From IMG/VR virus record IMGVR_UViG_3300025096_000008, positions 23,183 through 87,182 of that record: DNA of 64,000 nucleotides; one strand, 5' to 3'. Positions 9,880 to 64,000 of this stretch are shown here, piece by piece. The first letter of the stretch is position 1. Every line of letters starts with the position of its first letter. This stretch comes from a virus. Below the pieces are notes generated by a model, which saw nothing but the letters and a program-made list of their open reading frames with translations, made no database searches and was not told the DNA's origin. Made by a program: the position numbers and the translations under genes.

Positions 9880-10527
9880 ATGAAAAAGATTATCAATGAA
9901 TGGCGACAATACTTGAACGAGTCATCTCTGTCTCGTGTATACCAGCATATTGGAGAGCATGACACGGCTATACTCACGGGCTTCCGTGGAGATCCATCTG
10001 ATACCTCCAGGTGTGTAGAAGGCTCAGCAGAGTATGAGGAAGAGGTAGAGGAAGTGAAGAAGGGTAGGGCGAAAAGCTCGAACATGCTTCGGAACCGAGA
10101 TGTGAAGGCTTCCTTATTGGCTAGCGGCTACGGAGTTACCAAAGTGGACGGCTCTTACATCGAAGACTTTGATACACCCTCGGCAATGGAAGTGTCGGAA
10201 GATAGCTTTTTCGTAGTCAACCTCAAAGATGATCCTTCTTTCGCTTCCAGAGTTGAGGAGATTGGTAAGAAGTTCTGCCAAGACTCCGTGTTAGTAATAC
10301 CAAAAGGCGGCAAGGGAGCATACTTGCTTGGCACTAACAACAGCGAATTCCCTGGGCTCGGACAACAAATATCCGTAGGGGATATAAAAATGGGCAAAGA
10401 GTCGGAATTTATGACCCGAGTCGGCAAACGTCCATTTACTTTCGCTGAAGGGCTGGAGACATATAGTGATCTCTCCAAGAACGAGCGAATGGCTGTAAAG
10501 AACATCGCCAAGAAAATTCTCTCGTAA
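9880..10527 (+). CDS. putative SAM lyase (T3 gp0.3-like) with an N-terminal capsid-targeting-like tag
   Basis: AILTGFR / NMLRNRDV / GSYIE / SEDSFFV / KFCQDSVLV match, in order, the T3 SAMase blocks as recalled; N-terminus MKKIINEWRQYLNE. Confidence 0.6.
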   Translation: MKKIINEWRQYLNESSLSRVYQHIGEHDTAILTGFRGDPSDTSRCVEGSAEYEEEVEEVKKGRAKSSNMLRNRDVKASLLASGYGVTKVDGSYIEDFDTPSAMEVSEDSFFVVNLKDDPSFASRVEEIGKKFCQDSVLVIPKGGKGAYLLGTNNSEFPGLGQQISVGDIKMGKESEFMTRVGKRPFTFAEGLETYSDLSKNERMAVKNIAKKILS

Positions 10528-10588
10528 AATCAACAACTTACAAATACTCAACAAATCTCTTGACAAGAGATTTGTGATATGATATACT
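10528..10588 (+). promoter_or_regulatory. IHF-consensus site plus sigma70 promoter of the polymerase gene
   Basis: AATCAACAACTTA (WATCAANNNNTTR) at 10528-10540; TTGACA 10560-10565, 17 bp, TATACT. Confidence 0.75.
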
Positions 10589-10622
10589 CCTATAACTAAC
10601 CCATTCCCAGGAGCTTTTTGAT

Positions 10623-13600
10623 ATGGAAAGAAAAGAATCAACGATTCCGTTCGTAGGATTACATGCCCACAGTGTCGCCAGTGTGTTTGATGGTCTTGGA
10701 TACCCGCAAGAACACATGGACTTTGCTTATGAGAACGGTATGGATGCCCTAGCTCTAACTGATCACGGCAATATGAACGGGCTGGCATATCAAGTGCTTC
10801 ATGCTAAAAAGATGAAAGAACAAGGTAAAGACTTTAAGCCAATTTTTGGTGTTGAGGCATACTTTATTCCGTCCGTATCGGAATGGCGAGATGACTATGA
10901 TCGAATCAAGAAAGAGCGAGCCGAGAGCAAAAAGCGGCAATCCAAGTTGAACGATGATGTATCCGGTGCGACTGTCGAAGATGAGGAAGAGACAAAGAAG
11001 GCTATCAAGAGCATCCTGAATAGGCGACGCCACTTGATTCTATTAGCCCAGAACCAAAAAGGGCTAAATAATATTTTTCAACTAATCAGCAAGAGCTACA
11101 AGGAAGAGAATTATTATCGCTTTCCTCGCCTAGATTTTGATATGCTACAGGAACACAACGAGGGGGTCATTGCTGCCTCCGCTTGCCTAGGTGGTGTATA
11201 TGCCGGAGACTTCTGGGAGAACCGAGAGGAAGGCTCTGAGGCAGTCAGAGAGGCAATGAGAAAGACAACATCGAGGATGGTGGACATCTTCGGCGACAGA
11301 TGGTATGCCGAGCTCCAATGGAACAGAATTGATGAACAGCATCAGCTAAACAAACATATTATCGAGGTAGCAAAAGAGTTTGATGTGAGCCTAATTAGTA
11401 CCGCTGATAGTCACTATCCAAGCCCCGATGTGTGGAAGCAGCGAGAGGTATACAAAAAGATCGGATGGCTAAAAAAAGGCGATGATGGCTCGGGAATCCC
11501 CGAGACAATCGACGAAATGGATTACCAGCTTTATCCCAAGAATGGTGATGAAATGTGGGCATCTTACAAGGGGTACTCAAAGGATTGTGGATATGAATAC
11601 AATGATAATCTGGTACGCGACTCTATTGCCGAGACATATAACATTGCCCATGAGAGAATATCTAGGTTTTTACCAGATAACCAGGTACGGCTTCCAAGTT
11701 TTGTGGTCCCCGAAGGTAAAACGCCAGCAGATACTCTCATTGAGTGTTCCACTGAGGGGCTCCGAGAAGCCGGTCTTGATAAGAAAGATGTTTATGTAAA
11801 TCGCCTAAACGAAGAGCTTGAGGTAATCAACACTAACGAGTTCTCTCAATACTTTCTTACGATGAAAGCAATTGCAGATATCGCCTCATCCAAGCAGCTC
11901 GTAGGTCCAGCCCGTGGTAGTGCGGCAGGCTCTCTTGTCGCTTATGTTCTGGGTATAACCCAAGTGGATCCGATAAAGTATGATCTTCTGTTCGAGCGTT
12001 TTATGACGAGGAACCAGAAGGATGTAGGCTTTCCCGACATCGACTATGATGTTTCAGATCCTTTTGAACTGAAAGAGGCTCTGATAGAAGAGTGGGGCGA
12101 CGATAAAGTTGTGCCCATCTCAAACTGGAACACCCTTCAACTAAAATCTCTGATAAAAGACATCAGCAAGATGCAGGGCATTCCCTTCAAGGAAGTGAAC
12201 TTAGTTACCAGTGTGATGATGAGAGAGGCAACCCCTTTGGCTAAAAAGGCGAAGGGCATGACGGCAGGCATGTATATTCCAGGCTTCGAGGAAGTGAAAG
12301 AATACAGCCCTACATTACAGGAGTTCTTTCGAAAGTATCCCGATGTAGAGACTAATGTTGATGTACTGTACGGTCAAGTGAGAAGCTGCTCTCGTCATGC
12401 TGGCGGAGTAGTTGTTGGAGACAATCTAGACCAGCATATGCCGATCATCAATAGTGGTGGTGTGAAACAGACTCCATGGAGCGAAGGGCAGAATGTCCGG
12501 CATCTAGAGCCCATGGGCTTCATTAAGTTTGATATCTTGGGACTAGCATCGCTTCGAATGATGGAGTCAGCAATCGTCCATGTTCTCAAGCGACACAAGG
12601 GTAATCCTGAACCCACTTTTGATGATGTGAAAGAATTCTACGACAAGAATCTTCACCCAACAGTTATCAACTTGGATGACCAGAATGTATACAAGAACAT
12701 CTTCGGGAGAGGAAAATGGGCAGGCATCTTCCAGTTTACTGAAGACGGAGCCCAAAGGTTTTGTAAGCATGTCAAGCCAAACAACATCGTTGATCTCTCT
12801 GCTATCACGAGTATCTATCGACCTGGACCTCTCTCCGCCAAAGTGGACAAGCATTACATCCAAGCAAAGAACAATCCTGATGAGATTGAATATGCTCACG
12901 AGATTGTCGAGGAAGTAACCAAGGAGACTTACGGGTTTCTTATCTTCCAGGAGCAAATAGCATTGCTAGCCCATCGCCTTGGTCACGACATCAGTCTAGA
13001 CGAAGGGAATATGCTTCGTAAGATTTTGACCAAGCGAGGCTCTGGGAAAGACAAACTCAAAGAGGATATCCACAATCGGTTCATCACGGGATGTTTAGAG
13101 AAAGACATGAGAGCAGACAAGGCTCAAAGACTATGGGATACATTTGAGTTCTTCTCAGGGTATGGATTCAACAAGTCTCATGCCTTGAGCTACAGCATCC
13201 TATCGTTTCAGTGTGCTTGGCTGCTGAACTACTATCCTTCCGAGTGGATGGCAGCATTCCTAGACAAGGAGCCAGAAGCACGAAAAGAGAAGGCTATCAA
13301 CATAGCACGAAGTATGGGATTCGATATTGAGAAGCTCAATGTAAATACTAGCGGCTTCACTTGGGAAATCAACGAAGATGGCAACACACTAATCCAGCCG
13401 CTTTCGAGCATCAAGGGCTTGGGGAGTACAGCCATCAAAGAGATAATGACCCACCGACCATTCAATACGGTGGAGGATTTCCTCTTCAACGATAGGATGC
13501 TCTACTCAAAGGTAAACAAGAAGAGCATCGATGCACTTGCTCGTTCTCAGGCGATGAACGAACTTATTGACGATAGGTTTAGTGGGATGAGGCACTTCTG

Positions 13601-14486: not shown

Positions 14487-15017
14487 ATGATACTAGAATA
14501 TGTAAGAGTAAGAGAAGATGCTTTGCCCCCCGAACGGGCAAACCCGAGTGATGCAGGGCTCGATTTGTTTTTCAATCCAGAAAACAAAGAGTCGATTTCA
14601 ATCGAGCCCGGTCAAAGCAAGCTGTTTCAGACAGGCTACAAGTTTGGTATTCCTCACGGATACTGCTTGGAGGTGAAGAACCGCTCTGGCAATGCTTCCA
14701 AGAAGAATCTGCTGGTCGGAGCCTGTGTTATCGACCCAGGCTACGATGGCGAAGTCTTTGTCAACCTACACAATGTTGGCACAGAACAGAGGCAAATCAG
14801 CCCAGGTGATAAAATTGCCCAGGTGGTGATGTATCCGATTGTCCACTTCAAGGCATTCGAGAAGCATGACCAAGATTTGTATAACTACTATCCAATAGCG
14901 ATGAGTGATCGTAAGGATGGCGCACTTGGGAGCACCGACAACAAGAAGCAGGATCTGCTTTCGAAGCTTCCTGTGTATGCTGATATGTGCTTCGACTTCG
15001 AAGGGGAGCGGTCTTGA
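14487..15017 (+). CDS. dut: trimeric dUTPase
   Basis: AGLDL, RSG, IDPGYDGE, KIAQ, RKDGALGST. Confidence 0.95.
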   Translation: MILEYVRVREDALPPERANPSDAGLDLFFNPENKESISIEPGQSKLFQTGYKFGIPHGYCLEVKNRSGNASKKNLLVGACVIDPGYDGEVFVNLHNVGTEQRQISPGDKIAQVVMYPIVHFKAFEKHDQDLYNYYPIAMSDRKDGALGSTDNKKQDLLSKLPVYADMCFDFEGERS

Positions 15018-15290
15018 GCGACAAAAAACATTATGATGGCATCTTTTTGATAATAATAGCATCATTAGCAGGCTTCATTATCACAGCCCTCCTTTTTTCA
15101 GCTTTCACGGCTCCAATGGGGCTTGAGCGAATGTGTGAGGAGTTCAATGATGCCGGAGAATGATTGGCTGGGAGTAGACTTTCTACTCTTAGCAGCGGAG
15201 ACACTGATGCCCTGGGCATTTGTTGGAATCTTCATATGGACTATAGCCAAATATTATAGAAAATAATAGTCACAAGAAAAGGGATAGAAA

Positions 15291-15770
15291 ATGGATAAGA
15301 ATACAAAAAAGGTTATGTTTAGCAGTAAAGATATGAGTTGGGAAACTCCTCAAAAGTTGTTCGATAAGCTAGACGAGGAGTTCAGCTTTGATTTGGATCC
15401 CTGTGCCTCCAACGACAATGCTAAATGTAAGAACTTCTTTACGGAGGACGACGACGGACTAGCACAGTCTTGGGGACCGAACAAGTCAATATTTGTCAAC
15501 CCACCATATGGCAAGGCGATAAAGAGCTGGGTAAAAAAGGCTTACGACGAGAGTCGAAAAGAAAAAACTACTGTCGTAATGCTAATACCTTCTCGAACTG
15601 ATACATCGTATTGGCACGAGTATTGTATGAAAGCCGCCGAGATCTACTTCATAAAAGGGCGAATCAAATTTAGCGATAGCAGTATGTCAGCCCCATTTCC
15701 GTCTGCAGTTGTTGTTTTTCGGGACCACTGGAAGCAACAAAACCCGCTGATGGGAGCGATCACCAGGTAA
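15291..15770 (+). CDS. phage N6-adenine DNA methyltransferase (phage Dam family)
   Basis: WETPQ, FDLDPCA, DGL..SW, FVNPPY, LIPSRTDT.YWH, GRIKF, APFPS. Confidence 0.9.
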   Translation: MDKNTKKVMFSSKDMSWETPQKLFDKLDEEFSFDLDPCASNDNAKCKNFFTEDDDGLAQSWGPNKSIFVNPPYGKAIKSWVKKAYDESRKEKTTVVMLIPSRTDTSYWHEYCMKAAEIYFIKGRIKFSDSSMSAPFPSAVVVFRDHWKQQNPLMGAITR

Positions 15771-15785
15771 AAATACTACTTATTT

Positions 15786-16466
15786 ATGGTGTCTAGAGTT
15801 TTTACCCTCCCCATCGTGTTATTAGCAGCCATATTTTTCCTGGGTGCTGGGTGTGTATCTCTTGGCGAAGATGTTAAAGTTCGACCTGCTTCCTGTGAGG
15901 AAAAGAGCGAGATAACGAGGATACCAGGATGGGATATGTCCTATCAGATAGAACCATCCTGTAGCCTCCCGGATCCAGCCGACACATCGCTAGCATTACA
16001 TGTTTTCTACATGGAGTGGTATAAAAGATTCGGAGATAAGTCGAACATCGTGCTCAAGAACTTGAACAGGATGACTATTGAGTGGCGACTAGAAAAGATG
16101 GTATTCAACAATGGCTACCGGATGGACGGCACTTTCATAGAGCAAGGGACAGCAATTGGACTTACATTAGATAAAGATTATGTCGTTGTTTATTTAGGTC
16201 CAGGAGAAAAAGTACCAGACACATCTCTGATTCACGAACTTGTCCATGCCTCGATAAGGGTTCTCTCTCCAGATAATCGAGGAGACCCAGACCACGAAGG
16301 TGGCATATACCCTGGATGGACAGAAAACCATACACGACTCATAAAAGAAGCAAACGAAATTTTAAAATTGATGGATTTAAGAAATGCCGAAAAAGATAAA
16401 AAAGACTACGAAGTCTTCCAAACGAGCGAAAAAAGACCTACAACAAAAAATGAACATGTTCGATAG
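15786..16466 (+). CDS. lipoprotein with a zincin HExxH motif
   Basis: LGAGC lipobox; SLIHELVH...GDPDH; late motif at 15775. Confidence 0.6.
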   Translation: MVSRVFTLPIVLLAAIFFLGAGCVSLGEDVKVRPASCEEKSEITRIPGWDMSYQIEPSCSLPDPADTSLALHVFYMEWYKRFGDKSNIVLKNLNRMTIEWRLEKMVFNNGYRMDGTFIEQGTAIGLTLDKDYVVVYLGPGEKVPDTSLIHELVHASIRVLSPDNRGDPDHEGGIYPGWTENHTRLIKEANEILKLMDLRNAEKDKKDYEVFQTSEKRPTTKNEHVR

Positions 16467-16641
16467 ATTACCAGACGAGTGTAGTGCTTGTTTGAAATCG
16501 TTCGACAAAAAAGACAAGGAGATGGTGAAGTCCTGGCATGTAGTGGTAAAGAATGACGAGAATGTGGTCAGGCTTTATTGTACAAGTTGCTGGAAGGCAG
16601 CCACCTCGGTTGTTGAAGATTTCGAATCGGGCATAAAGTGA
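16384..16641 (+). CDS. zinc-finger hypothetical protein
   Basis: CSAC...CTSC; overlaps the previous ORF by 83 nt. Confidence 0.6.
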   Translation: MPKKIKKTTKSSKRAKKDLQQKMNMFDRLPDECSACLKSFDKKDKEMVKSWHVVVKNDENVVRLYCTSCWKAATSVVEDFESGIK

Positions 16642-16940
16642 TCATCGGGTTCGAGGACGAAGACACCACTTATGCTAAGCTACTTACCAAGCTTAAGCAT
16701 GAGGGCATCACAAAGAGACAGTTTTTCAGAGGAGTTGTATCTTCTTTCCTGGAAGATGACCCGAAGTTTGCCGACTACATAATAGAGTTCAAAAAAAAGA
16801 AGCATCTTTTTGTAAAAAGTAAGCAGAAAATACTTGACAAAGAGAAACAAATATCCGATAATACAAAGAGAAAGTTTAGACTATCAGAAGATGAGATAGA
16901 AGGCTTGTTCGACATGTTTGAAGAGGAAATGGACATATGA
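16638..16940 (+). CDS. hypothetical protein
   Basis: Translationally coupled overlaps on both sides. Confidence 0.6.
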   Translation: MIIGFEDEDTTYAKLLTKLKHEGITKRQFFRGVVSSFLEDDPKFADYIIEFKKKKHLFVKSKQKILDKEKQISDNTKRKFRLSEDEIEGLFDMFEEEMDI

Positions 16941-17173
16941 AGGACTGCGCTAAGAAATGCTACACATCGGGCGACATGTGTCTGAAAGAGGATTGTAGGC
17001 TGTGGATAGAGCACAAAGAGGATAACAACTGTGTAGCGATATCCATAGAGAAGAACGGAGAAATGACTCTCCACCAGATTTCTGAAAGGCTGGGAGTTAG
17101 TTATGTGAGAGTGAAGCAAATACAAGATAAGGCACTAAACAAGCTTAATAAAAGATTGCTTGTTATAGAGTGA
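16937..17173 (+). CDS. stand-alone sigma70 region-4 HTH protein with a Cys-rich N-terminus
   Basis: MTLHQISERLGVSYVRVKQIQDKALNKL resembles region 4.2. Confidence 0.75.
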   Translation: MKDCAKKCYTSGDMCLKEDCRLWIEHKEDNNCVAISIEKNGEMTLHQISERLGVSYVRVKQIQDKALNKLNKRLLVIE

Positions 17174-17271
17174 TAAAAAGGGATTTTTGCCTTTCTGAAC
17201 ACTATTTATAGATGATTTAAAGTTTCTTTATCGCCACAAAGGCGAATTAATATTCATAGGGAGAGAGAGTT

Positions 17272-17826
17272 ATGTCTAAGAAAACGTTGCTAGAAGAAGG
17301 TTCAGTCCGTCATTTTATGAAACTGGCTAGCCTACAACCACTAGCTGAAGAGTTCGTATCGGATTTGTACAAGGAAGAAGTAGTCGAAGAGGCTGCTGAC
17401 GAAACAGAGGAAGTCGCCGAAGCAGTTGAAGCTGATACGGCAGAAGTTGTTGACGAAGATGTGACCGAAGAAGTCGTTAGTGAAGAAGAGCCAGCCCCTG
17501 AGATGGACATGGAAGCAGAAGAGCCAGCCCCTGAGATGGACATGGAAGCAGAAGAGCTCTCCATCACTCCAGAAGAGGCTGAAATTCTTGTGAAGCTCGG
17601 GCAAAAGATTGCTGCCGCCGGCACCGAAGAGGCTCCTGCCGAAGACGAGATGGAAATGGATTCCGAGCTAGAGGCACCCGCTGACGACATGGGCGGAGAA
17701 GAGATGGAAATGGCTTCCGAGGAAGAGGAAGAAGCTCCTGCCATGAGAGATATGTATGAGAACCTAGATGACTTGGTAGCCGAGGTTAGCAAGCGAGTAA
17801 AAGAACGACTAGCCGCTAAACAATAA
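17272..17826 (+). CDS. highly acidic protein, prohead scaffold/core-like
   Basis: Glu-rich low-complexity body with amphipathic ends; ACTATTTAT at 17201; own terminator. Confidence 0.55.
   Translation: MSKKTLLEEGSVRHFMKLASLQPLAEEFVSDLYKEEVVEEAADETEEVAEAVEADTAEVVDEDVTEEVVSEEEPAPEMDMEAEEPAPEMDMEAEELSITPEEAEILVKLGQKIAAAGTEEAPAEDEMEMDSELEAPADDMGGEEMEMASEEEEEAPAMRDMYENLDDLVAEVSKRVKERLAAKQ
17485..17556 (+). repeat. 33-bp in-frame tandem duplication (EEPAPEMDMEA x2)
   Basis: gaagagccagcccctgagatggacatggaagca occurs twice exactly. Confidence 0.95.
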
Positions 17827-17849
17827 GCTATACATCTAGAAGAAGATGG

Positions 17850-17888
17850 AAAAAACCACCTGCATCCCTTTGAGCAGGTGGTTTTTTT
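17850..17888. terminator. bidirectional intrinsic terminator
   Basis: AAAAACCACCTGC-loop-GCAGGTGGTTTTT. Confidence 0.85.
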
Positions 17889-17960
17889 GCTTGACAAGCT
17901 TGAAAAGAAGTTTTATAATCTTTCTGAACTATTTATTTTGAATATGGGAAGTTATTTATC

Positions 17961-18149
17961 ATGGTCGAGTTTTCTAGAAAGTTATGGTACAAGACAGTGC
18001 TACACACCCTACAGAAGAAATATGATCGGCAGTGGAACAGATGTCTTAAACTGAGAGGCTCCGGTCAGATCGGCAAGATGGCAACTGAATTTTTGAAAAG
18101 CGAGGAAATACGGACCAGAATTGAGTCCGAAAGGAAGAAGATGAAATGA
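17961..18149 (+). CDS. hypothetical protein
   Basis: Follows a sigma70 promoter (17891-17919) and a late motif (17928). Confidence 0.55.
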   Translation: MVEFSRKLWYKTVLHTLQKKYDRQWNRCLKLRGSGQIGKMATEFLKSEEIRTRIESERKKMK

Positions 18150-19420: not shown

Positions 19421-19494
19421 CGAAAAATAATCCTTGACTTTCTAAATAATACGGTTATAATACTAAGAGAGATTTTTCTTTTCTCGGAGGATAC

Positions 19495-22480: not shown

Positions 22481-22488
22481 GAGCAGCT

Positions 22489-36114: not shown

Positions 36115-36237
36115 TGGTAGTAGAAACATTCGGAATCGTTTTCTTTGTAGGCTATCTGATTCTAGCAGGCTGTGTTGCCTACTATTTGTGGTAGATATAA
36201 ATCGGGGTTTTGCTGCTTGAAAGACTATTTATATATT

Positions 36238-36561
36238 ATGAGAATAATAATTGAAGGTAACGGCTCTTTATCAAAGCAGCAGTTACAGAAAATGTCTCCC
36301 GAGGAAGTGAAGGCTTACTTCTCGTCTATAGAATCAGAGGAAGAGCCCAGGGTAGGTCCACCGCTTAAAGGCTCTCCCGACTTCAAGAACTCCGGCAAAA
36401 CCGTCCCCAGCAATGAAGATGATCGTATCCGCCAAGCCGTCCAGTATGTACTCCAGGATCCATCCGTCATGGACATGATAAAGAAGCACCTTTCTGGTGT
36501 GGCTGGAGCATCCCCCTTGGAACCAACGAAGCCAGGCAGGAAGAAGCCTGCTAGCGAGTAA
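36238..36561 (+). CDS. hypothetical late protein
   Basis: ACTATTTAT at 36224 just before the ATG; no SD. Confidence 0.55.
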   Translation: MRIIIEGNGSLSKQQLQKMSPEEVKAYFSSIESEEEPRVGPPLKGSPDFKNSGKTVPSNEDDRIRQAVQYVLQDPSVMDMIKKHLSGVAGASPLEPTKPGRKKPASE

Positions 36562-36566
36562 GAGCT

Positions 36567-37766
36567 ATGAAGCTATTGTTTGAGAACTGGCGAAGCCACC
36601 TAGAAGAAGGAATAAGCGATATCGTCTATCACGGCACCAGCCTAGGTAGACTATCGGATATCGCCAAAGGCAACCGACTTATGACATCTGGTGTCTTCGG
36701 TGCTGATGCTGAAGAGATCATCGGCAAGGGAAAGTTCTACTTTCTCTCTACGGCACGGTCCCCATCAGCCTTCAAGCATGGATATCCTTTGGTCAAGGAC
36801 GGCAAAACTCGTATCACTCTAGACGGCAAGAAGATCGGACAGAAGTATTCGGGTGGACCAATAGATTACTGGCGGGATCGAACTAAAGGCGGCAAGTCAG
36901 AGATGGAAGATAGGATCATAACAGACGATCCTTGGATAGAGAATGCTGCTGATTACATTACAGAGATAGTCGTCTACCTTCCGATCCTCAGAGGAAAGGC
37001 AACTGATTCAGACAGCATCCTAGGATCAATTGCATCGGACAAGCCGACAAAATATGAATACATTCCCAACCGAGATATTGGATTTGCCGATATCAAAGCT
37101 CTAAAAGAGGTAAGCGATTTTGCTCAATCCCACGGGATCCCTCTAAAGATAATACCGACAGAAGAAAAAGAAAGTGAGTTCTATATGAACAACCAGCCCT
37201 CAGCAGTATCCCACGACGAATTCGATAAAATGAGAAAAGAGTTAGACATAGACCCAGAGGAAAAAACACATCGTGGGAAGGAGCGAGATGCCTTCCACAT
37301 AAAGCTAAGGAATGCGTCATCCTATTCTCTTCTTCCTCCACTAATGGAACTGACCAAGATGCTGGATGCCGGCAACTTTAACTCATCCTCATCCGAGAAA
37401 TGGTTTCCAACGAAAGAGGACATGCTGGAGGTCAAAACAGATTTGTACGAGTGGTCCAAGAAGCCAGACTTTGAGGAGTATCCACTACCAGAGTATGATG
37501 AGCCCGAAAAGCGAGAGCTACGAAGGAAGTTCCTGGAAGGGCAAGTGATAGTTACCAAGGAAGACATCGATGATGTTGAGGAAAGGCTCACTCGGTTTAA
37601 AAACGAGGCAGCCAGTGTGTTCGGTACCGACTTTCTAAGTGCTAGGACAGATCCTCGCCGAAGACCCTTCATTCAATTCTTTACGAAATACATGAGAAGC
37701 AAAAAGCTTGAGAATGTCACTGAACTAGTCAAGCATCTAGAGCAAGAGCTCAGAAAAACTATTTAG
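36567..37766 (+). CDS. ADP-ribosyltransferase-like protein with a capsid-targeting-like tag
   Basis: MKLLFENWRSHLEE, then YHGTS...FLSTARS...EMEDRI. Confidence 0.5.
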   Translation: MKLLFENWRSHLEEGISDIVYHGTSLGRLSDIAKGNRLMTSGVFGADAEEIIGKGKFYFLSTARSPSAFKHGYPLVKDGKTRITLDGKKIGQKYSGGPIDYWRDRTKGGKSEMEDRIITDDPWIENAADYITEIVVYLPILRGKATDSDSILGSIASDKPTKYEYIPNRDIGFADIKALKEVSDFAQSHGIPLKIIPTEEKESEFYMNNQPSAVSHDEFDKMRKELDIDPEEKTHRGKERDAFHIKLRNASSYSLLPPLMELTKMLDAGNFNSSSSEKWFPTKEDMLEVKTDLYEWSKKPDFEEYPLPEYDEPEKRELRRKFLEGQVIVTKEDIDDVEERLTRFKNEAASVFGTDFLSARTDPRRRPFIQFFTKYMRSKKLENVTELVKHLEQELRKTI

Positions 37767-53480: not shown

Positions 53481-56400
53481 AAAGATCGCATGAAAATCAA
53501 ACCAATACTTGATTACTACTGGACTGGCGAACACACTCTAGATAGTGATAAAGTTTATGATGTCGAGCTAGCAACAAACCAACCGGGTTGGGAGAAGCAT
53601 GGTCTAGTCTTTGTTGAGGGCTATTTGTTAACTTCAGAAGAATATGAGGTGGTAGGATGAAGGAAGTTTTCAAAAGTCTTTTTGAAGAAGAATGTTACAC
53701 ATTTTTAGATAACAATTCCCATATCAATGGGGTTGTTGAAAAAGATGTTTTTTCGGGTTATTTCAAAGTTTTAGACTTAGGCTAGGAAAAGAATAATGGA
53801 AAATCTAGAAGTTGGTGATTTAGTATTCTTTCACCGTGAGGTAGATGGTGAGCCTGGTGCCGGCATTAAGAACGGTAGAGCCTGGAAAGGTATTATCACT
53901 GGTCCGGTATCAGAAGAAAAGAAGGACTGTGCTGACTGGGAAGTTAAGTGGCTATTCGATACCGATGGTAACAACTCTGAACACAATTGTGCTCATTGGA
54001 GTTGGGAACTTGTAAAGGCAGAGGATCAAGGCAAGCCATGGGAACGGCTAGACACATATGTTGCCAATGGTGGTTTAATGAAAGAACTAGAAGCACAGTT
54101 ATTTGGCGATAACCCAATAGAAGGAGAATAATGCTAGCAACCCATAGAGCAAAGAAGGATGCCTCAAGGCGGACCAAGAACCGGTTTAGAGAACATACCC
54201 TAGTGTTTGTTAAGAAACTACCAGTATGGTCAGACACTTGGATCAAGAACGAAATCGATAGTGTATTTAGAGGCACCAGCATTTTGTTCGAGAGTGTAGA
54301 GAAGGATGAAAAAGGTAAGTTTGCTAAGTGGTGTGGATGGATTCCCGCTAGTGAAGTTGAGAGGATAGAAGAATGACCGTATTGAACTACCATAAACAAC
54401 CTGGGACAGTCTTCCCCATAGAAGAGGCTAAGAGTTTAGTGTTGGAAAACATCCGATGGGAAACAGATGGCTGGGATTATAGAATCGAAACAGTCAACAC
54501 TGATTCCAGAGGAAACAACACCACGGCTAAAGTGAGAGTATACGATGACGAAAATATATTCGTTGGATACCTATAGGCGAATCAAGGTCCGTACAGTGGA
54601 CCTCACAGAGATGCCGGATGATTTGCTGATGCTGCTTCTGAATGGATCCATGTCCTATAGTGACGCAGCTAAGGCATACCCCGGTCCCATCTGTACCATC
54701 ATAGAGGAGCCAGCCGATAAAGCAGCACCTCCTCCATTGCCGGAAGATGCCGACTGTGATGAGTAGCTGAAACATGCTATTAGCCGCCAAAGTGATTGTT
54801 GTATTTTGTTTAACATACGATTTGCTAACACTATTTGATATTTACCAGAAAAGAGAACGATAATGATCAACACCAAGAAGAAGAAGCCCGATATGGTGAC
54901 AGTGCTGCTAACACAGCAAGAGATCCAAGCATTATATTTTACCCTAGAAGCGGCAATGAATAAGAGCGGCGTTGTGAGAGAAGAACACCATATGCCCATT
55001 AACTGGATCCTTAATTGTATCGAGGAAGAAGTGTCCCAATGAGAATCCGAGTTAACACAATCATCTTACTAGCACTCCTGGCTCTCTCAATTGGACTCTG
55101 TAGCTCTTGTGTTGTCGTTGTGGATGATACACCGGCTGAAAGCCGGGAGGGCACACAGGTCATCGTGAAGCATTCTGATACTGATGAAAGCTGTGACGAA
55201 GTACCTCACGAGCACCGAGCTCAGCGGTGTGATGTATATGAGGGAAGAGATTGTTGTGAGTGGTATATTGGTGATGGATGTTTTGAGAAGTATTGCTTCT
55301 ATTATCACAATTGCGAATGGCATTGGTACGGCACGACTTGTGAGGTTCAAGAATGACAAACAAATGGAAGCATCCTGCACCACCACATGATTTTGAAATT
55401 GGTGATCTCGTGGTTGAGTCTGGGTATGATTTTGGCAAAGGCTGTGGTGTAGTGGTAGACTTAGCTAATACTAGCCCACACTTTGCCGGCGGAACCTATC
55501 GAATGGGCACAATACAAATCTTTTGGACTGGTGACGAGTACGAGGCTGCTGGTATGGACGGCAAAGATCCTGGTGTCTATTGGGCTCTCCCTCATAAGAT
55601 AAAGAAACTAATCAAAGCAGAGGAACAAAATGATGGATGAGAATAAACTAAACCGTGGTCGCTGGCCAATAGAACATCTTATAACTAGCGGTGTTGAGGC
55701 GAAGCGGAAGCGAGCCGAAGAAGAAATAGCTGGCTATGACATGTCTAAAGCAAGAAAAAATCTTGCCGATTTTGACAATGTGCTTTGGTGCATACGAAAC
55801 CTGAAAAAAAATTATGCCGACGAAAAAAATATCGTCGAGGCTTGTCGTCTAATTTCTATCGTCTATCGATGGAATCTAACACACTGGCGAGCCGGAACTC
55901 AACACTGGAGGTTGATCTAATGGAAGAGCATAATAGAAAAAATGATAAGTTCTGGGTGGTGAGCAAGCCGAGCAAGACATGGGATTTAGATTTCTTATCA
56001 AACTATCTCACTATCGAAGACATATGTTTTTGTACTTGTTATCGAGGGCTTATGACCCAAACTTTGGGTGGACTCACTCCGTCAGATATAGTTGGTGTTT
56101 TTGTGAGCGAAAAACCGGCTAAAGTATGTGCAGAACAGATTCTAAAACAATGTATTATCGAAAAAACCTTAGAAGAAAGCAAGAGCAAGTTATGATTATG
56201 AAAGTTGGAGATTTGGTAGAAGTTTCTATTGACTGGAGAGATGAGATTGGTGTTATCGTTGGCTTCGACTCTGAAAAGGATCCTGTAATTAAAGTTGATG
56301 ATGGCTGCATTGTTGATTACCGAGAGAATGTAAGGGTGTTAAATGAAAAAAGGCAATATCTATAAGTTCAGTTATATCTCGGAAAACTCAGAGCTAAATT

Positions 56401-57019
56401 ACAAGAATATCATGTTCCTTGGTGAAGAGTGGAGCTATCCCGAAGGTGGCTTCGCTGTAAGAAATTATAAAGTTTTAATACTTGGAGAAATTTCGCCTGT
56501 CACAATAGACAAGAGCCTAGTTAGGTATATGACACCTGTGTAGGTGTGTAAGAAGAACAGGGAGCACCATGGCACAATGGGAAATGAAGAAGATACATAT
56601 ATTACTATAAATGATGTGAGACCTGGTGATTTCGTATGTATTGTTCCACGAACATGGTGGTCTGCTCTTCGTGGAGAATATAAGATCGAATTCGGTACCA
56701 TAGTATCAAAGCCGGAAGATCTAAGGGGTGGTGTAAGAGTGTATTCATCTTCCAGAGGAACATGGATTGTTTTCCCACACCAGTGGTATTTTAGGAAGTT
56801 AGACACATGAAAACAGGCGATTTAGTGGAGTGGGATGGTTTATTTACTGAGTATGGTAAGACATATATGTCTAAACAATATCTCGGGCTTGGAATCATAA
56901 TTGACGATACTAGCTATCGAGAAACTGTCATTGTCCAGTGGCTTAATTCTGGGTGGAAGCTTCGCTGCGTAAAGGAGTCTCTCAGGATAGCGACTAAAGA
57001 ACAGCAAGACTTCCTGTAG
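53478..57019 (+). other. operon of small ORFs, including GDLV-type 53796-54131, 55353-55640, 56192-56365, 56343-56543, 56544-56810, 56807-57019 and a Cys-rich lipoprotein 55039-55356
   Basis: Repeated [KE]xGD[LF]V starts; LCSSC lipobox-like end of a signal peptide. Confidence 0.6.
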
Positions 57020-57073
57020 AAAGATAGTTGATTTATTTTTTGACTTTTCTCGAACATTCTGATAATATAACAT

Positions 57074-58003
57074 ATGGAGGATTCCTTGACAGATGTGAGC
57101 CAAAGATTTAAGGACTATGGTGAAGAGCATTGCTGGCAGTATGAAATCCGTCTTCGGAATCTAGAAGAGGATATATCGCTAGCTGGGCTTAAGCCAGGAG
57201 ATGCTGAGTCTCTTCATGTTTCCGATTTCAAATTTGAATATGTTGATAAGTCGGAAAAAGATAAGTGTGCAGAGATAAGTGACTTCATAAAGAAGCACGA
57301 ATGGCTCGGCAAGCTTCCGAACCGTCCTACACAACGATTTACAGCCCGGCTCAAGGAAGGTAATGTCCTTGCTGGGGTTATCATTATGGCTGTTCCAAAT
57401 ACCTTCTCTCACCTCCTTGGGAAAGAGAATATCGGCATCGAAAAGTTAATCTCTCGTGGCGCCTGTATATCATGGTCGCCTAAGAGCCTAGGTTCTTGGC
57501 TCGTAACGAAGTCTATCAAGTGGATGGTACAGAATACTGATTTTCGATACTTCACAGCATACTCCGATCCGGAAGCAAAAGAATTAGGGACAATCTATCA
57601 AGCTTGTAACTTTATTTATCTTGGCAAAGGCTCCGGAGTAGCAAAGCAGTATTTCGATCCGGAGAATCCCAAGCAGGGGTGGTTCAGCGGCAGAGAATTC
57701 AGGAAGAAATCAAAGTATTATAGATATGCCAAGGAGGTGGGTATCAGCAAAGAACAATGGGCACTATGGATGAAGAAGTATAGCCCAGACTGGACATTGG
57801 TTCCTCCAGCGGTAAAGACTATGGTAAAGGAAAGAGAGAGAGTGTATCGAGACAGTTGCCATGTTCGAGAGGTAGTTTCGAAGCATAAATATTGTTATAT
57901 CCTCGGGAAAACAAAAGCCGAGACAAAGAGCTTGAGAAAATTATTTATCGAGAAAAATCCAGATAAAATTAACCTTCCTTATCCTAAGAATCGTGGAGAG
58001 TGA
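57074..58003 (+). CDS. Mom-family (GNAT fold) DNA modification protein
   Basis: FIKKHEW, LAGVI, LISR, SWLV..SIK, AYSDP...GTIYQACNFIYLG. Confidence 0.75.
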   Translation: MEDSLTDVSQRFKDYGEEHCWQYEIRLRNLEEDISLAGLKPGDAESLHVSDFKFEYVDKSEKDKCAEISDFIKKHEWLGKLPNRPTQRFTARLKEGNVLAGVIIMAVPNTFSHLLGKENIGIEKLISRGACISWSPKSLGSWLVTKSIKWMVQNTDFRYFTAYSDPEAKELGTIYQACNFIYLGKGSGVAKQYFDPENPKQGWFSGREFRKKSKYYRYAKEVGISKEQWALWMKKYSPDWTLVPPAVKTMVKERERVYRDSCHVREVVSKHKYCYILGKTKAETKSLRKLFIEKNPDKINLPYPKNRGE

Positions 58004-58194
58004 GAATGAAAAGCGGTGATTTAGTAAAGTGTAGAGATGACGAAAACTACCTTTTTGGAATGGGCTTGGTTGTCAAAGAAGAGACAAGAATGGTTAAGGT
58101 GCTATGGCTCTCTGGGTTCGCCGATGATGGCTTCGGCAGAATTGATGATCCGGCTGACTGGAACTGGAAATGCAACCTGGAGCTAGCGAAATGA
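58000..58194 (+). CDS. GDLV SH3/KOW-like small protein
   Basis: MKSGDLVKC..GMGLVV..VLW..LEL. Confidence 0.65.
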   Translation: MRMKSGDLVKCRDDENYLFGMGLVVKEETRMVKVLWLSGFADDGFGRIDDPADWNWKCNLELAK

Positions 58195-58385
58195 AAAAGC
58201 AGAAAAAGAAAAAGCAGAAAAAGAAAAAGCGGAAGAAAAGGAAGAGGAAAATGAAAAACAGAAATCTCCTTGTTAAGAATATGATCTGTAAACCAAAGAA
58301 CAGTGGAGCACATAAAGATAAGAAGAAAGAGGCTAGCAAAAAGGAGTGTCGTAGTAAACCTACGAGCCATAGCCAGGGAGAATAA
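58191..58385 (+). CDS. very basic small protein
   Basis: Poly-Lys N-terminus from a 15-bp tandem repeat; SGAHKDKKK. Confidence 0.5.
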   Translation: MKKQKKKKQKKKKRKKRKRKMKNRNLLVKNMICKPKNSGAHKDKKKEASKKECRSKPTSHSQGE

Positions 58386-58413
58386 GCTATTGCCCATCTA
58401 TTTATATGTGTAT

Positions 58414-59155: not shown

Positions 59156-59484
59156 CACAATCTATTTATAAAAATGGTAAAGAAAAGAATCAACAGACTA
59201 ATATCTAAAGTTCTCTCGATCAACTGGTCGCATGGGGAGGTGAAGACAATGTATTTTCAAATAAAAGTGCAGGATACTACAGAAGAAGTGTCTGTAAAGG
59301 TAGGAGGTACCAGTTACGGTCCAATGAGTGTTACGGCTCAATCTGTGCCTAACAGTGTAAATTTCGTGGATATGGATGCCTAAAAGCAAAATAGCAAATT
59401 AATATACTATTTATAGTTGTAGTTGGAATAAGTAACACTAAAACGATCTCTTAAAAAGAGTATTTACAGTTAAAGGAGCTAAAG

Positions 59485-59814
59485 ATGAAAATAACAAAAA
59501 GCCAATTGAAGCAAATTGTCAAAGAAGAAATATCCCGAGTGTTTGATGAGAGCGATGTTCGAATCGATGAATTCGGCTTGGGAAGGTCTATCAAAGGTGC
59601 CGCAGCCTCGCTCAAGGCGAAAGGCATGGATATGGTCAAGGGAACCGGTAAGTTGGCTCAGACAACCCAGGCACAAAAACAGATTAAGATGATGGTTAAG
59701 GATATTATAAAATCCGGAGATACCCAAGAAGCAAAGTCGATGGCTAATCATTTGAAAGCATTGACAGACGAGCTGGCGGCTTTCGCTGGAAAAGACGACA
59801 TGCCTTATCAGTAG
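59485..59814 (+). CDS. putative internal head protein
   Basis: MKITKSQLKQIVKEEI N-terminus; late motif at 59406. Confidence 0.55.
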   Translation: MKITKSQLKQIVKEEISRVFDESDVRIDEFGLGRSIKGAAASLKAKGMDMVKGTGKLAQTTQAQKQIKMMVKDIIKSGDTQEAKSMANHLKALTDELAAFAGKDDMPYQ

Positions 59815-59823: not shown

Positions 59824-60297
59824 ATGAAAATAACAGAAAAAGTACTTCGTAAGATGATTAGAGAAGAAGTAGAGGTCGGCGAAACGGCTGAAGAAGCATA
59901 TGAAGCCAACTTGAACGATGAGAAAATCATCCGTTTTTTCGAAGAAGGTATTAACCAAGAAGAGCAGCTTGCAGAAATTAGCTCGCTGGATGAGGCGGCA
60001 TTACTAGCTCAGATCCCTAGGCTCGTTTCCGCTCTTAAGAGCAACAAAATGATTCAAGCTTTGATAGGTAAGATCGCAGAAGATCCTAAAGCTGCTGCTC
60101 AGTTTCTTTCCACTATGGCACAAATGGTCGGCATCGATACTGATAAGACTTTTACCGGTAGACAGAAATCAGTAGCTAAGAGCCTTGACAATACCACTCC
60201 CCAATCCGAGCCGGCGGCAGACGATAAAGACGGATTAGTTGAAGGCTTAATTAGAGAAGTGCTGAATGAAATATTCGGTAATAAAGATAAAAAATAA
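59824..60297 (+). CDS. putative internal head protein
   Basis: MKITEKVLRKMIREEV N-terminus; LIREVLNE near the C-terminus. Confidence 0.55.
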   Translation: MKITEKVLRKMIREEVEVGETAEEAYEANLNDEKIIRFFEEGINQEEQLAEISSLDEAALLAQIPRLVSALKSNKMIQALIGKIAEDPKAAAQFLSTMAQMVGIDTDKTFTGRQKSVAKSLDNTTPQSEPAADDKDGLVEGLIREVLNEIFGNKDKK

Positions 60298-60554: not shown

Positions 60555-61124
60555 ATGAGTGTGCTGGACGAGAAGGTTCTTGTGTTAGATAAGGGGTATC
60601 AGCCCGTACATGTCGTCAGTGCTAAAAATGCTATCTATCTGCTTTTCCGAGAGGTAGGCAAAGTTATCGATGAAGACTGGAATGTACACTCCCTAGAGGA
60701 GTGGATAGAGAAGAATAACGGCATTGAATGTGAGAAGCCGGTAAGAACTCCAAGATATAGTTTTCCAGTACCAAACATAGTTTTATTAAGATTTTATGTG
60801 AAAAAAAACCTTCCCATGCTTAAGTGCAATAAGAGCAACATTTGTCTGAGAGATAACTGGCGATGTGGATATTGCGATAAGAAAATGAGGGAGAGGGATT
60901 GTACAATTGATCACATTGTCCCTGTCTCACTCGGAGGTATAACGGAGTGGACAAATGTCGTAATCTCCTGTTCGAAATGCAACAATAGGAAAGGCAATCG
61001 GACAATAGAGGAATCTGGTTTGGAGCTTAAGACAGACATATATATCCCTAGTTGGTCAAAGCAAATTCTAAAAAGATACATTGGTAATGATAGCTATCAT
61101 CCATGGAAATCTTTCTTGAGGTAG
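60555..61124 (+). CDS. HNH endonuclease
   Basis: VLVLD..YQPV, RDNWRCGYC, TIDHIVP.S.GG, W.NVV.SC..CN.RKG. Confidence 0.92.
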   Translation: MSVLDEKVLVLDKGYQPVHVVSAKNAIYLLFREVGKVIDEDWNVHSLEEWIEKNNGIECEKPVRTPRYSFPVPNIVLLRFYVKKNLPMLKCNKSNICLRDNWRCGYCDKKMRERDCTIDHIVPVSLGGITEWTNVVISCSKCNNRKGNRTIEESGLELKTDIYIPSWSKQILKRYIGNDSYHPWKSFLR

Positions 61125-61153: not shown

Positions 61154-62184
61154 ATGAGAAACGGAGATTTAGTTGTTTTCAAGTATTTCAAAAATAGCTA
61201 TAAAAATGAAAACTATTTAGGTATAATAGTAAGCACCCAAACTGATATCTTGATTCCCACTGAATGGGGATATGATAAGGTGGATCTAGTTCTCGTTAAC
61301 TGGTTCGATCCAGAAGGCGCCGAGGATCTACCTTACCACACTATCGGGCTTAATGGAGAGAGGTGGTATCATAAGGGTCAATTTTACCTCGTAGGAGAAT
61401 AGTATGGCAGCATTTAAAGTAGGAGATTGGGTAATGGTAACTCCGTCTGCAGACTACCATTGGGAGTATTGGACAATTACCCACACAGAATTTGCCGGTG
61501 AGTATGCTGAGATTTTGGCTATTCAGCCAGATCAAGTAGATCCAAGTGTCGAGTATTATTATCTCAGGCTCAATGCACTTGGCACGGAGCAACCACTTGA
61601 AGCATGGTTCTTGCCTCGTCATGTAATTCTCGCCAAGAAGGCAGATGTCTATTCGAGCAATAACCTCAAGAAAGCCTGTGATGAACTACAGGAGTGGGAG
61701 ACCAAGAAGAGGAAGTTGGTCGATGATGCACTGAGACATGTCTTTGGAAATCCGAAGAAGGAAGTTCGACCACTACGGAAAAGGGTAGGATTGGCTAGCA
61801 GTGACGAGAGGAGTGCCGCCACACTTTTTGACGATGAGTGGGAAGAAGAAACAATAGAGATAGATATAAATCATATTGTGCCGGCAGACTACGAAGGCTG
61901 GGATTGAGATGGAACTCAGTAAGGATACATCATATAAATCTGGCGACCTAGTTTATTGTGATGTCTTGGAAGTTGCCAAGCACGAATGGGAGTTTGGCAC
62001 AACTTATGGTAGGTTAAGAGGCATAGAATCTATCACAGATATGTGGCCGTGGATTATGTGTATTGTTATAGAGGTTCGAAAAACATTAAAGGTAGCAAAG
62101 CTCTATATTCCATTCCTCGGCATTACGATAAGGGCACCGTTTTCTGGTATTAGAGCTTACGAAGGGAGAGGTACAAAGGAATGA
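61154..62184 (+). other. three tandem GDLV-type ORFs (61154-61402, 61404-61907, 61909-62184)
   Basis: MRNGDLV, FKVGDWV, YKSGDLV. Confidence 0.6.
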
Positions 62185-62804
62185 CAACAATTAAAAATGT
62201 AATGGCTGACTTGTTTGTAGAGCAGTTTAAAACAGCTATGAAAAAGAAGAAACATGCTTTCTTCGATTCTTACTTATCTTATAATCTGAACATTATTGGA
62301 GTAAGAAAGAAAAACAATTTATCTAATCAGTTCGACGATAACATAAATGTTATTTATCGAAACTCGGATAAAGAGTGGGAGGTATTTTCGGCGGCTGCTA
62401 CGACAGATCCAGGCAGGACGGCACTATTCAAGCCTCTAAGCAGAAAAGGGACCGCTATTTTGGTGCCTGGACAATACCGTGGCTCTCACAAGATAGACTT
62501 ACATGCCGGCAAATATACCGCCTTAAGGCAAAGCGGAGGAACGGTGAAGGTATGGCGAGACAATGATAAGGATAGTATATTAGATATGGACGACTCCAAG
62601 ATAGAAGAGGGTTATTTCGGGATAAACATCCATAGAGCGTCAAGGTATGGCGAAACAAGCTTGGTGAACTCTTACAGTGCTGGGTGTCAGGTATTTCAAA
62701 GTATTACTGACTTCAGAGAATTTATGGAGCTATGTGAGATGAGTGCTTCAAAGTTTTCGAACAAGTTTACATACACACTGTTAGAAGAAGGAGATTTTTC
62801 GTGA
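62181..62804 (+). CDS. L,D-transpeptidase-like (YkuD fold) cell-wall enzyme
   Basis: TTDPG, PGQY, GINIH...SAGCQV (H...SxGC). Confidence 0.6.
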   Translation: MTTIKNVMADLFVEQFKTAMKKKKHAFFDSYLSYNLNIIGVRKKNNLSNQFDDNINVIYRNSDKEWEVFSAAATTDPGRTALFKPLSRKGTAILVPGQYRGSHKIDLHAGKYTALRQSGGTVKVWRDNDKDSILDMDDSKIEEGYFGINIHRASRYGETSLVNSYSAGCQVFQSITDFREFMELCEMSASKFSNKFTYTLLEEGDFS

Positions 62805-63047
62805 AAGAAATAAATACAAATCTATTAACACTTGAGAACATAGAATATCAAATTGCACTACAAGAATACACTGAAGCAAAGCAAGATATGGATAGAGAGA
62901 TTCCCACCAAGGACAGGCTAAAGAGAATTATAGTAGCAGCATCGAATTTGGCTAAAATTCGTAAAAAAATGCAAGATAACTCGCCACAAGCATAAAAACT
63001 TCGTTTTTCAGCTTAAAATAGGCACTCTCAAGACTATTTATTTTCGT

Positions 63048-63833
63048 ATGTCATATTTTTTTAAAGAATGGAAGAAACTCATCACTGAAAAGGCGGATCC
63101 GAAAGATATCGACCTTTCAAGCTTCGAAGTAAAGGACATTCTAAGTCCAGATGTCTGGGAAGATGATGATTTTATAAAATCCGAAGTAAAAAACAACCTT
63201 AAAACGATAGCAGAGGACTTTTTGGATGGCTTAGACATCAAAAAGAGCCTTATTGATGATATTGTCATTACTGGAAGTGGCGCCAACTACAATTGGAGCA
63301 AGTTTTCCGATGTTGACTTACATATTCTCTTAGATTTCTCGAAAATTGATGAAAATACCGATCTTGTGAAGAAAATGTTTGATAAAGCAAGAATAAATTG
63401 GAATAGAACCCACGATATCAATATTGGGAAGCACGAAGTCGAAATATATGCCCAAGACACGAATGAGCCACATGTTTCGACTGGTGTTTACTCTGTTTTA
63501 GACGATAAATGGGTAGTAAAGCCAAATAAGCTCCAAGTGACCCTACAAAAAGACGATATAAAGAAGAAAGCGGCACAACTAATGGAAGAAATCGACGAAA
63601 TAGAGAAAGAGGCTGCCAGTAGCCCAGGAAAAACATACGATTCTATCATTTCTTTGAAGAAGAAAATACAAAAAATGCGAAGATGTGGACTCGAAAAGGG
63701 AGGTGAGTTTTCGGTCGAGAACCTTGCTTTTAAAGTTCTTCGAAGAAATGGTTATTTACAAAAATTGAGTGATATGAAACTAACTGCTTACGATAGCCTG
63801 CTTAGTTTAGAGGAATTAGAGAAAGATGATTAA
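63048..63833 (+). CDS. Pol-beta superfamily nucleotidyltransferase with a capsid-targeting-like tag
   Basis: ITGSGANYNW...SDVDLH, VEIY; N-terminus MSYFFKEWKKLITE; ACTATTTAT at 63033. Confidence 0.75.
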   Translation: MSYFFKEWKKLITEKADPKDIDLSSFEVKDILSPDVWEDDDFIKSEVKNNLKTIAEDFLDGLDIKKSLIDDIVITGSGANYNWSKFSDVDLHILLDFSKIDENTDLVKKMFDKARINWNRTHDINIGKHEVEIYAQDTNEPHVSTGVYSVLDDKWVVKPNKLQVTLQKDDIKKKAAQLMEEIDEIEKEAASSPGKTYDSIISLKKKIQKMRRCGLEKGGEFSVENLAFKVLRRNGYLQKLSDMKLTAYDSLLSLEELEKDD

Positions 63834-64000
63834 AATAAAGATAAAACCCGAGTATTCCGGCTGCCTAGAAGAGGCGATGGCGGATCTAAAAGCAATGAAG
63901 GCAAAATACAAGGACGATCCCATCCTATCTAAGATAGTTGATGCTCTAGAAGACAGAGATCCATCCGGCAATCACAAATATATCAACTGGGCAATGAAAC
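63826..64000 (+). CDS. 5' part of a hypothetical protein (truncated at the edge)
   Basis: MIKIKIKPEYSGCLEEA... open to the window end. Confidence 0.6.
   Translation, partial: MIKIKIKPEYSGCLEEAMADLKAMKAKYKDDPILSKIVDALEDRDPSGNHKYINWAMK

Follow-up and report, generated by a model that had tools for sequence, protein, structure and literature searches.

Two swappable N-terminal tags on unrelated proteins of uncultured marine phages: candidate capsid-targeting propeptides of the T4 kind

Two short peptide tags, each found at the N-termini of otherwise unrelated proteins, recur in a 64,000-nucleotide stretch of viral DNA (hereafter the window) and in many related viruses. We think it likely that these tags are capsid (prohead-core) targeting propeptides, used clade-wide and of the same kind as the capsid targeting sequence (CTS) of phage T4, and that the enzymes bearing them are packaged in the head and injected with the DNA. 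The window makes up the final 64 kb of a viral contig of 87,182 bp from IMG/VR (IMGVR_UViG_3300025096_000008, here G000; estimated completeness 48%); its + strand carries every gene, and the 23 kb preceding it contain a T4-type structural module. On sequence grounds the clade appears to comprise uncultured marine T4-superfamily myoviruses with genomes of about 180-200 kb. DNA largely matching the contig is present in seawater and marine-sediment metagenomes of many studies, no RNA run being listed among the sequencing runs concerned, and a megablast search with one window gene against phage records gave no match. The nearest cultured relatives are distant, being Flavobacterium phage 'immuto' (about 48% over part of the capsid protein) and, in a capsid comparison with cultured phages, Microcystis phage Mel-JY01 and Rhodothermus phage RM378 (34-37%).

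The first tag (type 1) comprises 14 residues and forms the N-terminus of three unrelated window proteins. In the six frames of the 87-kb contig there are exactly three matches to its search pattern (two hydrophobics, x, [ENDQ], W, [RK], x, x, [LIVM], x, E), and in shuffled sequence none, the three copies representing residues 4-14 of open reading frames (ORFs) that start at 9880, 36567 and 63048. Position-specific scoring matrices (PSSMs) for both tag types, that for type 1 being derived from the tags of relatives, were scanned over the contig proteome, and the same three N-termini took the first three places among about 26,000 positions (scores in Table 1; next best position 7.3 bits). As the three tags differ at most codons, their similarity resides in the peptide and not in the DNA. 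The second tag (type 2) has two occurrences on the contig by pattern, heading the neighbouring genes 59485 and 59824, with none in shuffles, and these also ranked top by PSSM (51.8 and 22.0 bits, respectively). All peptides quoted in an earlier, sequence-only reading of the window were recovered where it had placed them; its further suggestion of weaker type-2 copies elsewhere was largely not borne out, since 18146, 17272 and 63826 ranked 34, 3367 and 525 of 23,149 positions, and the match in 36238 was no more than marginal (8.7 bits) and displaced to residue 9.

Tag counts in related viruses were made on a sample of about 3 Mb of related viral contigs. This contains 171 distinct type-1-tagged proteins, whose bodies fall into 94 clusters without mutual BLAST similarity, and, at the same loci, 82 distinct type-2-tagged proteins in 69 body clusters, so that the claim of a swappable tag on unrelated enzymes is strongly supported and extends throughout the clade, over about 160 unrelated bodies. 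The consensus sequences are M-K-L-L-F-E-N-W-R-K-Y/F-L-N-E (type 1, 14 residues) and M-K-I/L-T-K-x-Q-L-K-Q-I-I-K-E-E-L-x-x-h-h-x-E (type 2, about 22 residues; h, hydrophobic). In type 1, residue 8 is Trp in 147 of the 171 proteins, residue 14 is Glu in 163, and residue 12 is Leu, Ile, Val, Met or Phe in all 171, as the search pattern itself demands; conservation is gone from residue 15 onward. At stringent PSSM thresholds the match stands at the start codon in 169 of 178 cases for type 1 and 121 of 124 for type 2. Up to six synonymous codons encode a given conserved tag residue, with all six in use for Arg9 and five or six for each Leu. Taken together, the N-terminal position, the diversity of bodies and the variety of codons indicate that the tags are real, far beyond chance and selected at the level of the peptide.

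Individual families illustrate the same behaviour. Orthologues of the 9880 protein retain the type-1 tag down to 49% identity, and the first nine residues of the 36567 tag recur identically on 168-169-aa proteins of two other phages (L103 and L104) that resemble the 36567 protein only over the first ~59 residues. One of these phages (G001, which carries L104) is represented by a complete 185,278-bp genome, in which at least ten genes of type 1 and two of type 2 follow one another in a single cluster at about 22.4-34 kb. Back-translated M-K-x-L-F-E-N-W is present in more than 120 stretches among the IMG/VR matches listed, against a chance expectation that we estimate at about one, and many of these listed matches lie on contigs of 180-200 kb. 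A second full-scoring type-1 copy was observed inside the long ORFs of one family, at residue ~476 of 731 in G001 (ORF 22410-24602; about 11144 in L104) and residue ~492 of 731 in L214, with a further copy near a C-terminus in L222; such internal or C-terminal copies may represent polyproteins cut by the head protease, or fused genes.

The strongest single result in favour of a link to the head, as judged by sequence comparison, is the presence of different tags on one and the same body. In an alignment of the 36567 family (A2), the tag is either W-type, or similar to the T4 CTS (MKTFQELVDLVTE or MKKFEELFELINE, MKTFQELV..), or MKVTDILVE. Each of these ends in hydrophobic-x-Glu, and the Glu occupies a column without variation, immediately in front of the conserved body. 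The hydrophobic-x-Glu that the sequence-only reading had remarked upon at the tag end holds in two settings, as Glu14 in 163 of 171 type-1 tags and as an invariant junction across three tag types on one body. One homologue with a T4-like tag (L325) apparently lies between a terminase gene and tail sheath and tube genes, identified from their N-terminal sequences. The 63048 family likewise varies by lineage, carrying a W-type, type-2-like or MKLFFKKNIIIEN-type tag or no tag, or standing behind large fusions.

The contig encodes the T4-type head to which such tags would be addressed. Its major capsid protein belongs to the Gp23 family (PF07068, 1.6e-75) and aligns with structures of T4 gp23*, a scaffold-like acidic gene lies directly upstream, and the upstream module also contains a T4 baseplate protein and, to judge from N-terminal sequences, apparent tail sheath and tube genes. 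The capsid propeptide is strongly conserved in the clade and includes four hydrophobic-x-Glu sites, the last of which (LLRE) falls shortly ahead of the region alignable with mature T4 gp23*. Mimicry by the tags of this propeptide (..KWE.TGLLEG, LLENQAKELLRE) or of the scaffold N-terminus was considered and set aside, as ungapped PSSM scans gave it no support. A prohead protease of the T4 gp21 family (Peptidase_S77), with the N-terminus MSK[QV]LLRE, is present in four of five relatives, in 13 of 14 large tag-bearing contigs and in nine of the nine that are at least 98% complete. In a close relative (G004) it is encoded about 15 kb upstream of the capsid gene, a distance that would place the expected protease site beyond the start of the window's contig; the separation in this sub-clade results from insertion of a 3,227-aa ORF (L201, 2983-12666), which stands behind a promoter-like motif between the protease/core and scaffold/capsid genes.

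Genes with tag-like starts adjoin this protease. Three small genes right behind it in G004 start with type-2-like peptides, and in L047 the gene right behind it starts M-T-E-N-W-R-E-F-I-Q-E-E, the order there being protease, this gene, a small core-like gene, scaffold and capsid gene. In T4, gene 21 likewise has small core genes, 67 and 68, as its neighbours (for the core's composition, see PMC9026906). The body of the L047 gene had seemed ParB-like by eye, an assignment we dropped as Pfam returned nothing. A complex prediction for tag residues 1-40 with two scaffold copies scored 0.00; run without controls, it is evidence neither way.

Association of the tagged genes with a promoter-like motif provides a further connection to the structural genes. 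ACTAYTTAT occurs 16 times in forward and once in reverse orientation on the contig, 13 of the 16 forward copies being intergenic, and precedes the scaffold/capsid operon, a 421-aa structural-module gene, the tail tube and further structural-module genes. The sequence-only reading had placed this motif upstream of each listed gene or its operon, and it does indeed precede 9880, 36238 (followed by 36567), 63048, 59485 (followed by 59824), 17272 and 17961 (followed by 18146), as well as window genes 21097 and 15786. In G001 the motif is similarly strand-biased (14:1), lies upstream of scaffold, sheath and fibre-like genes, and is found 20-21 nt upstream of three type-2 genes. Over all loci, the 60 nt upstream of tagged genes are 2.4-2.9-fold enriched in it (p about 0.001); this figure is conservative because tagged genes form arrays behind one promoter. 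At 36238 and 63048 the motif ends only 5-6 nt before the ATG and there is no Shine-Dalgarno sequence, which suggests that their late mRNAs would be leaderless or near-leaderless; a motif-to-start spacing of 5-9 nt recurs in homologues of 63048 (L105, L177, L150).

The protein starting at 9880, previously described as SAM-lyase-like, is by profile match a member of the S-adenosylmethionine (SAM) lyase family (PF23780; 43.5 bits, cut-off 28; E 3.8e-11). For the 36567 protein, which has no Pfam match, the earlier label of ADP-ribosyltransferase (ART)-like is supported at the level of the predicted fold. An AlphaFold2 model calculated from the 16 sequences of A2 reached a predicted local distance difference test score (pLDDT) of 75.5, compared with 34 for a single-sequence model, and in it the ART fold begins directly after the tag. 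Structure comparison of the model returned ART-fold proteins in nearly all of the top 50 rows, with Tpt1 at Z 10.4 (root-mean-square deviation 2.2 Å over 112 residues) and DarT at Z 7.9-8.1. Foldseek gave probabilities of 0.84-0.99 for the leading Tpt1/KptA and DarT matches, but with E values of 0.02-0.1. Six residues are invariant in A2 (H22, T24, Y101, E112, E114 and Y130) and may be NAD-binding or catalytic. The tag itself (residues 1-14, pLDDT below 50) is the least confident segment of the model and forms a helix detached from the body, which we count in favour of a targeting propeptide.

The label of nucleotidyltransferase for the 63048 protein is tentative: the Pfam match to NTP_transf_2 (PF01909, 17.1 bits) is below its cut-off of 21, and the match to phrog_36119 is strong (4.3e-48), a group listed without known function in PHROGs for which two cyanophage records annotate nucleotidyltransferase. 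When the SAM-lyase-like and nucleotidyltransferase-like bodies were compared by sequence with the PDB, every match was spurious and due to low complexity. The proposed PD-(D/E)xK cargo could not be sustained, as it comes down to a weak Atlas lead on the untagged 18146 protein, the lead being to a HaeIII-type restriction enzyme family. Among 80 tagged representatives from the clade, a Pfam census identified protein kinases, NUDIX, guanylate-kinase-like, GNAT, Amidase_2, 2H-phosphoesterase-like and papain-like toxin domains, and about four in five had no Pfam family.

Table 1. Tags, tagged genes, promoter-like motifs and adjoining genes in the window.
Feature	Position	Strand	Remarks
Late-promoter-like motif ACTACTTAT	9852..9860	+	19 nt before 9880 start
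Type-1 tag MKKIINEWRQYLNE	9880..9921	+	14 residues; PSSM 26.6 bits
S-adenosylmethionine lyase family protein (predicted), 215 aa	9880..10527	+	PF23780, residues 61-166
Late-promoter-like motif ACTATTTAT	36224..36232	+	5 nt before ATG at 36238
107-aa ORF, first in operon with 36567	36238..36561	+	marginal type-2-like segment at residue 9
Type-1 tag MKLLFENWRSHLEE	36567..36608	+	PSSM 33.5 bits
ADP-ribosyltransferase-fold protein (predicted), 399 aa	36567..37766	+	ART domain about residues 12-210, helical C-terminal half
Late-promoter-like motif ACTATTTAT	59406..59414	+	70 nt before 59485
Type-2-tagged protein, 109 aa, basic (pI 9.3)	59485..59814	+	tag ~22 residues, 59485-59550
Type-2-tagged protein, 157 aa, acidic (pI 4.7)	59824..60297	+	tag 59824-59889
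Untagged 207-aa gene	62181..62804	+	apparent N-terminal similarity to G001 26060-26692, unscored
Late-promoter-like motif ACTATTTAT	63033..63041	+	6 nt before ATG at 63048, leaderless-like
Type-1 tag, divergent MSYFFKEWKKLITE	63048..63089	+	PSSM 14.6 bits
Nucleotidyltransferase-like protein, 261 aa	63048..63833	+	phrog_36119
5' part of gene cut by contig end	63826..64000	+	N-terminus unlike type-1 tag

Several neighbouring genes deserve brief mention. An operon behind the promoter-like motif (17928-21060) comprises a 62-aa ORF, the 424-aa 18146 protein (phrog_33928) and a GroEL-like chaperonin (PF00118, 8e-61), and a similar arrangement of a long gene followed by a chaperonin-like gene exists in G001. 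The 184-aa product of 17272-17826, directly behind a promoter-like motif, is extremely acidic (pI 4.1), contains repeats, has no tag and may be an additional scaffold or core-like protein. The gene at 63826 shares, by eye, a DPSGNxKY segment with a family that is type-1-tagged in L206, and the G001 gene that the untagged 62181 gene appears to resemble stands inside the tagged-gene cluster. At 57074-58003 a 309-aa protein with a Mom-family domain (PF25680, 4.5e-10) suggests phage DNA modification, and an HNH endonuclease (60555-61124; PF14279, 2.2e-15) between the type-2 genes and the 63048 gene may mark a mobile element within the cargo region. More than a dozen small ORFs starting MKVGDLV.. 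are found at 15000-19600 of G001, and small GDLV-containing ORFs at about 49000-58400 of the window, which we read as a large expansion of one small-protein family. Finally, in the Synechococcus phage S-CRM01 (L185) a gene at 1183-2040, near a nucleotidyltransferase homologue, starts with MKLFNQFFKEAE, which has a T4-CTS-like look; CTS-like starts may thus also occur in cultured freshwater cyanophages.

Taken together, these observations match the sequence-level expectations of the T4 CTS mechanism. Under the reading that we favour, ACTAYTTAT promoters would transcribe the tagged genes late, together with the structural genes; the amphipathic tag helix would dock each protein on the scaffolding core before the Gp23 shell closes; and a gp21-type prohead protease would cut after Glu14 (type 1) or after the hydrophobic-x-Glu near residue 22 (type 2). 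The freed enzymes would remain in the head and probably enter the host with the DNA, where we infer a role in host takeover or anti-defence. For the window the cargo would comprise the SAM lyase, the ART-fold protein, the nucleotidyltransferase-like protein and two small proteins. The support for a connection between tags and head is indirect only, and derives from the Gp23 capsid, the relatives' protease, the hydrophobic-x-Glu junction, the late-promoter-like motif, the head-operon neighbours and the T4-CTS-like tag on an ART body, together with a cargo repertoire that parallels known packaged proteins (ART fold, kinases, NUDIX, GNAT, amidase).

Several observations weigh against this interpretation. 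No Peptidase_S77 prohead protease was found on the 87-kb contig, which is an estimated 48% complete, and the 'late' character of ACTAYTTAT is deduced from gene positions only. The window tags show no significant sequence similarity to the T4 CTS and differ from it in length and sequence, nor did PSSM scans reveal any significant similarity of the tags to the capsid propeptide or scaffold N-terminus. Glu14 is followed equally often by an acidic residue (Glu or Asp) and by Ser, Gly or Ala, SAM-lyase orthologues conserve the residues right behind the tag so that the boundary is less sharp there, and a few tag copies at the relatives' loci are internal or C-terminal. No cultured phage was found to carry the tags, tblastn of tag regions against cultured phages yielding only matches with E of 2 or above.

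The main rival to a capsid-targeting function, which we judge unlikely, is that the tags are docking helices for some other late partner (neck, tail, baseplate, phage chaperonin or a cytoplasmic assembly), the hydrophobic-x-Glu being incidental. Modularity, N-terminal position and peptide-level selection show a common partner and not its identity; a GroEL-like chaperonin is encoded in a motif-driven operon; and the lack of PSSM similarity to capsid propeptide or scaffold would also fit. Set against this, the junction Glu is invariant even when the tag type is replaced, including by a tag close to the T4 CTS, the tagged genes of relatives adjoin those of the prohead protease and the core, every near-complete tag-bearing genome tested has a gp21-type protease, and the enzymes as a set are reminiscent of injected proteins such as T4 Alt. 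Improbable again, though most plausible for the small type-2 proteins, is a role as core-targeted accessories of assembly alone, which would be degraded or expelled at maturation and not delivered. The type-2-like starts of small genes by the protease (G004, G001, L047), in the position of T4 genes 67 and 68, would accord with such a role, as would the many type-2 bodies that are short and without recognisable enzyme domain, and T4 core proteins are cut to fragments that leave the head (PMC9026906); in T4, on the other hand, the CTS proteins (internal proteins and Alt) are retained and injected (PMC9026906, PMC8442874). Moreover, the type-1 bodies include full-size enzymes (SAM lyase, ART fold, kinases, NUDIX, GNAT) with no obvious part in assembly. 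That the shared starts instead reflect a nucleic-acid feature, either a translation-initiation or mRNA element or a recombination cassette of promoter and first codons, is very improbable, for although tagged genes often lie behind one promoter-like motif, two almost without 5' leader, and highly expressed genes often have Lys at residue 2, the codon diversity described above, in the clade and among the window tags, largely excludes it, most array-internal tagged genes have no motif of their own, and the near-invariant Trp8 and Glu14 have no RNA-level rationale.

Retaining capsid targeting as the preferred function, we can also envisage, more tentatively and with some doubt, a two-address loading system, in which each genome would have two cleavable tags, exchangeable between lineages on the same cargo, and would pre-package dozens of enzymes (SAM lyase, ADP-ribosyltransferases, kinases, NUDIX, acetyltransferases and a cell-wall amidase) as an immediate arsenal for host takeover and anti-defence. 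The fate of a protein may depend on its tag, type 2 leading to embedding in the core and type 1 to injection. If capsid targeting is correct, the list of tagged genes is a sequence-only read-out of the proteins injected by abundant uncultured ocean phages, and hence a catalogue of first-minute effectors and counter-defence enzymes, most without known family. It would also mean that the T4 CTS principle is ancient and evolvable, with lineages varying the tag on the same cargo and conserving its Glu end, that tag-recognition rules can be tested by comparison, and that new tags are available with which to package foreign proteins in non-model phages. With a SAM lyase packaged beforehand, a known anti-restriction activity would be deployed in a new way, ready on entry rather than made as an early-gene product.

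The closest known system is that of T4, where Mullaney and Black reportedly described the CTS carried by IPI, IPII and IPIII (internal proteins) in 1996. Likenesses to it include a short, portable N-terminal peptide with a hydrophobic-x-Glu end on unrelated bodies, a Gp23 capsid, a gp21-type protease (here in relatives), ART-fold cargo (Alt in T4) and variable gene clusters, as in G001. T4 CTS propeptides are 10-19 residues long, N-terminal and confer affinity for the scaffolding core on internal proteins, with residues 4 and 7 serving targeting and residues 8 and 10 cleavage by gp21; the ADP-ribosyltransferase Alt, which has an N-terminal propeptide, is packaged and processed like CTS proteins, and fusion to the CTS leads to the packaging and injection of foreign proteins (PMC9026906, PMC5694885, PMC8442874). 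The T4 CTS itself reads MKTYQEFIAE (PMC8442874), and is nearly matched by MKTFQELVDLVTE on the ART body of one other lineage. In contrast to T4, the tags described here have 14 or about 22 residues rather than about 10, with an invariant Trp8 (type 1) or a K-E-E-L core (type 2), and two types coexist in one genome; the cargo amounts to at least 94 and 69 body clusters and is enzyme-rich, whereas that of T4 is a handful of mostly small basic proteins; and the present system is known from sequences alone. The tags would accordingly work like the T4 CTS without forming one sequence family with it.

The giant phages phiKZ, 201phi2-1 and SPN3US possess ejection and inner-head proteins with long N-terminal propeptides that are cut by a gp21-related protease (PMC5694885, PMC10052503). 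Head-internal proteins matured by a T4-related protease at x-x-Glu motifs would be common to both systems, and the conserved N-termini of paralogues in those phages are thought to be targeting signals, but their propeptides are mostly 80-160 residues in length, their cleavage motif is [A/S/G]-x-E, and those N-termini are common to paralogues and not to scores of unrelated families. The polyvalent proteins of phages and conjugative elements, which Iyer, Burroughs, Anand, de Souza and Aravind are said to have proposed in 2017 to be delivered with DNA into the new host, have a comparable repertoire of effector-like domains (ARTs, nucleotidyltransferases, kinases and peptidases), but form one giant fused protein, in contrast to the separate genes, each with its own address tag, described here. 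The open-access full-text literature searched contained no prior description of the motif strings or of CTS in marine or T4-like contexts. The principle is that known from T4, and what is new is the coexistence of two distinct, longer tags within a genome, their spread across at least about 160 unrelated protein families in a clade sample that is small, the enzyme-rich cargo, and comparative sequence evidence that points to swapping of tags between lineages on the same body, with the junction Glu fixed.

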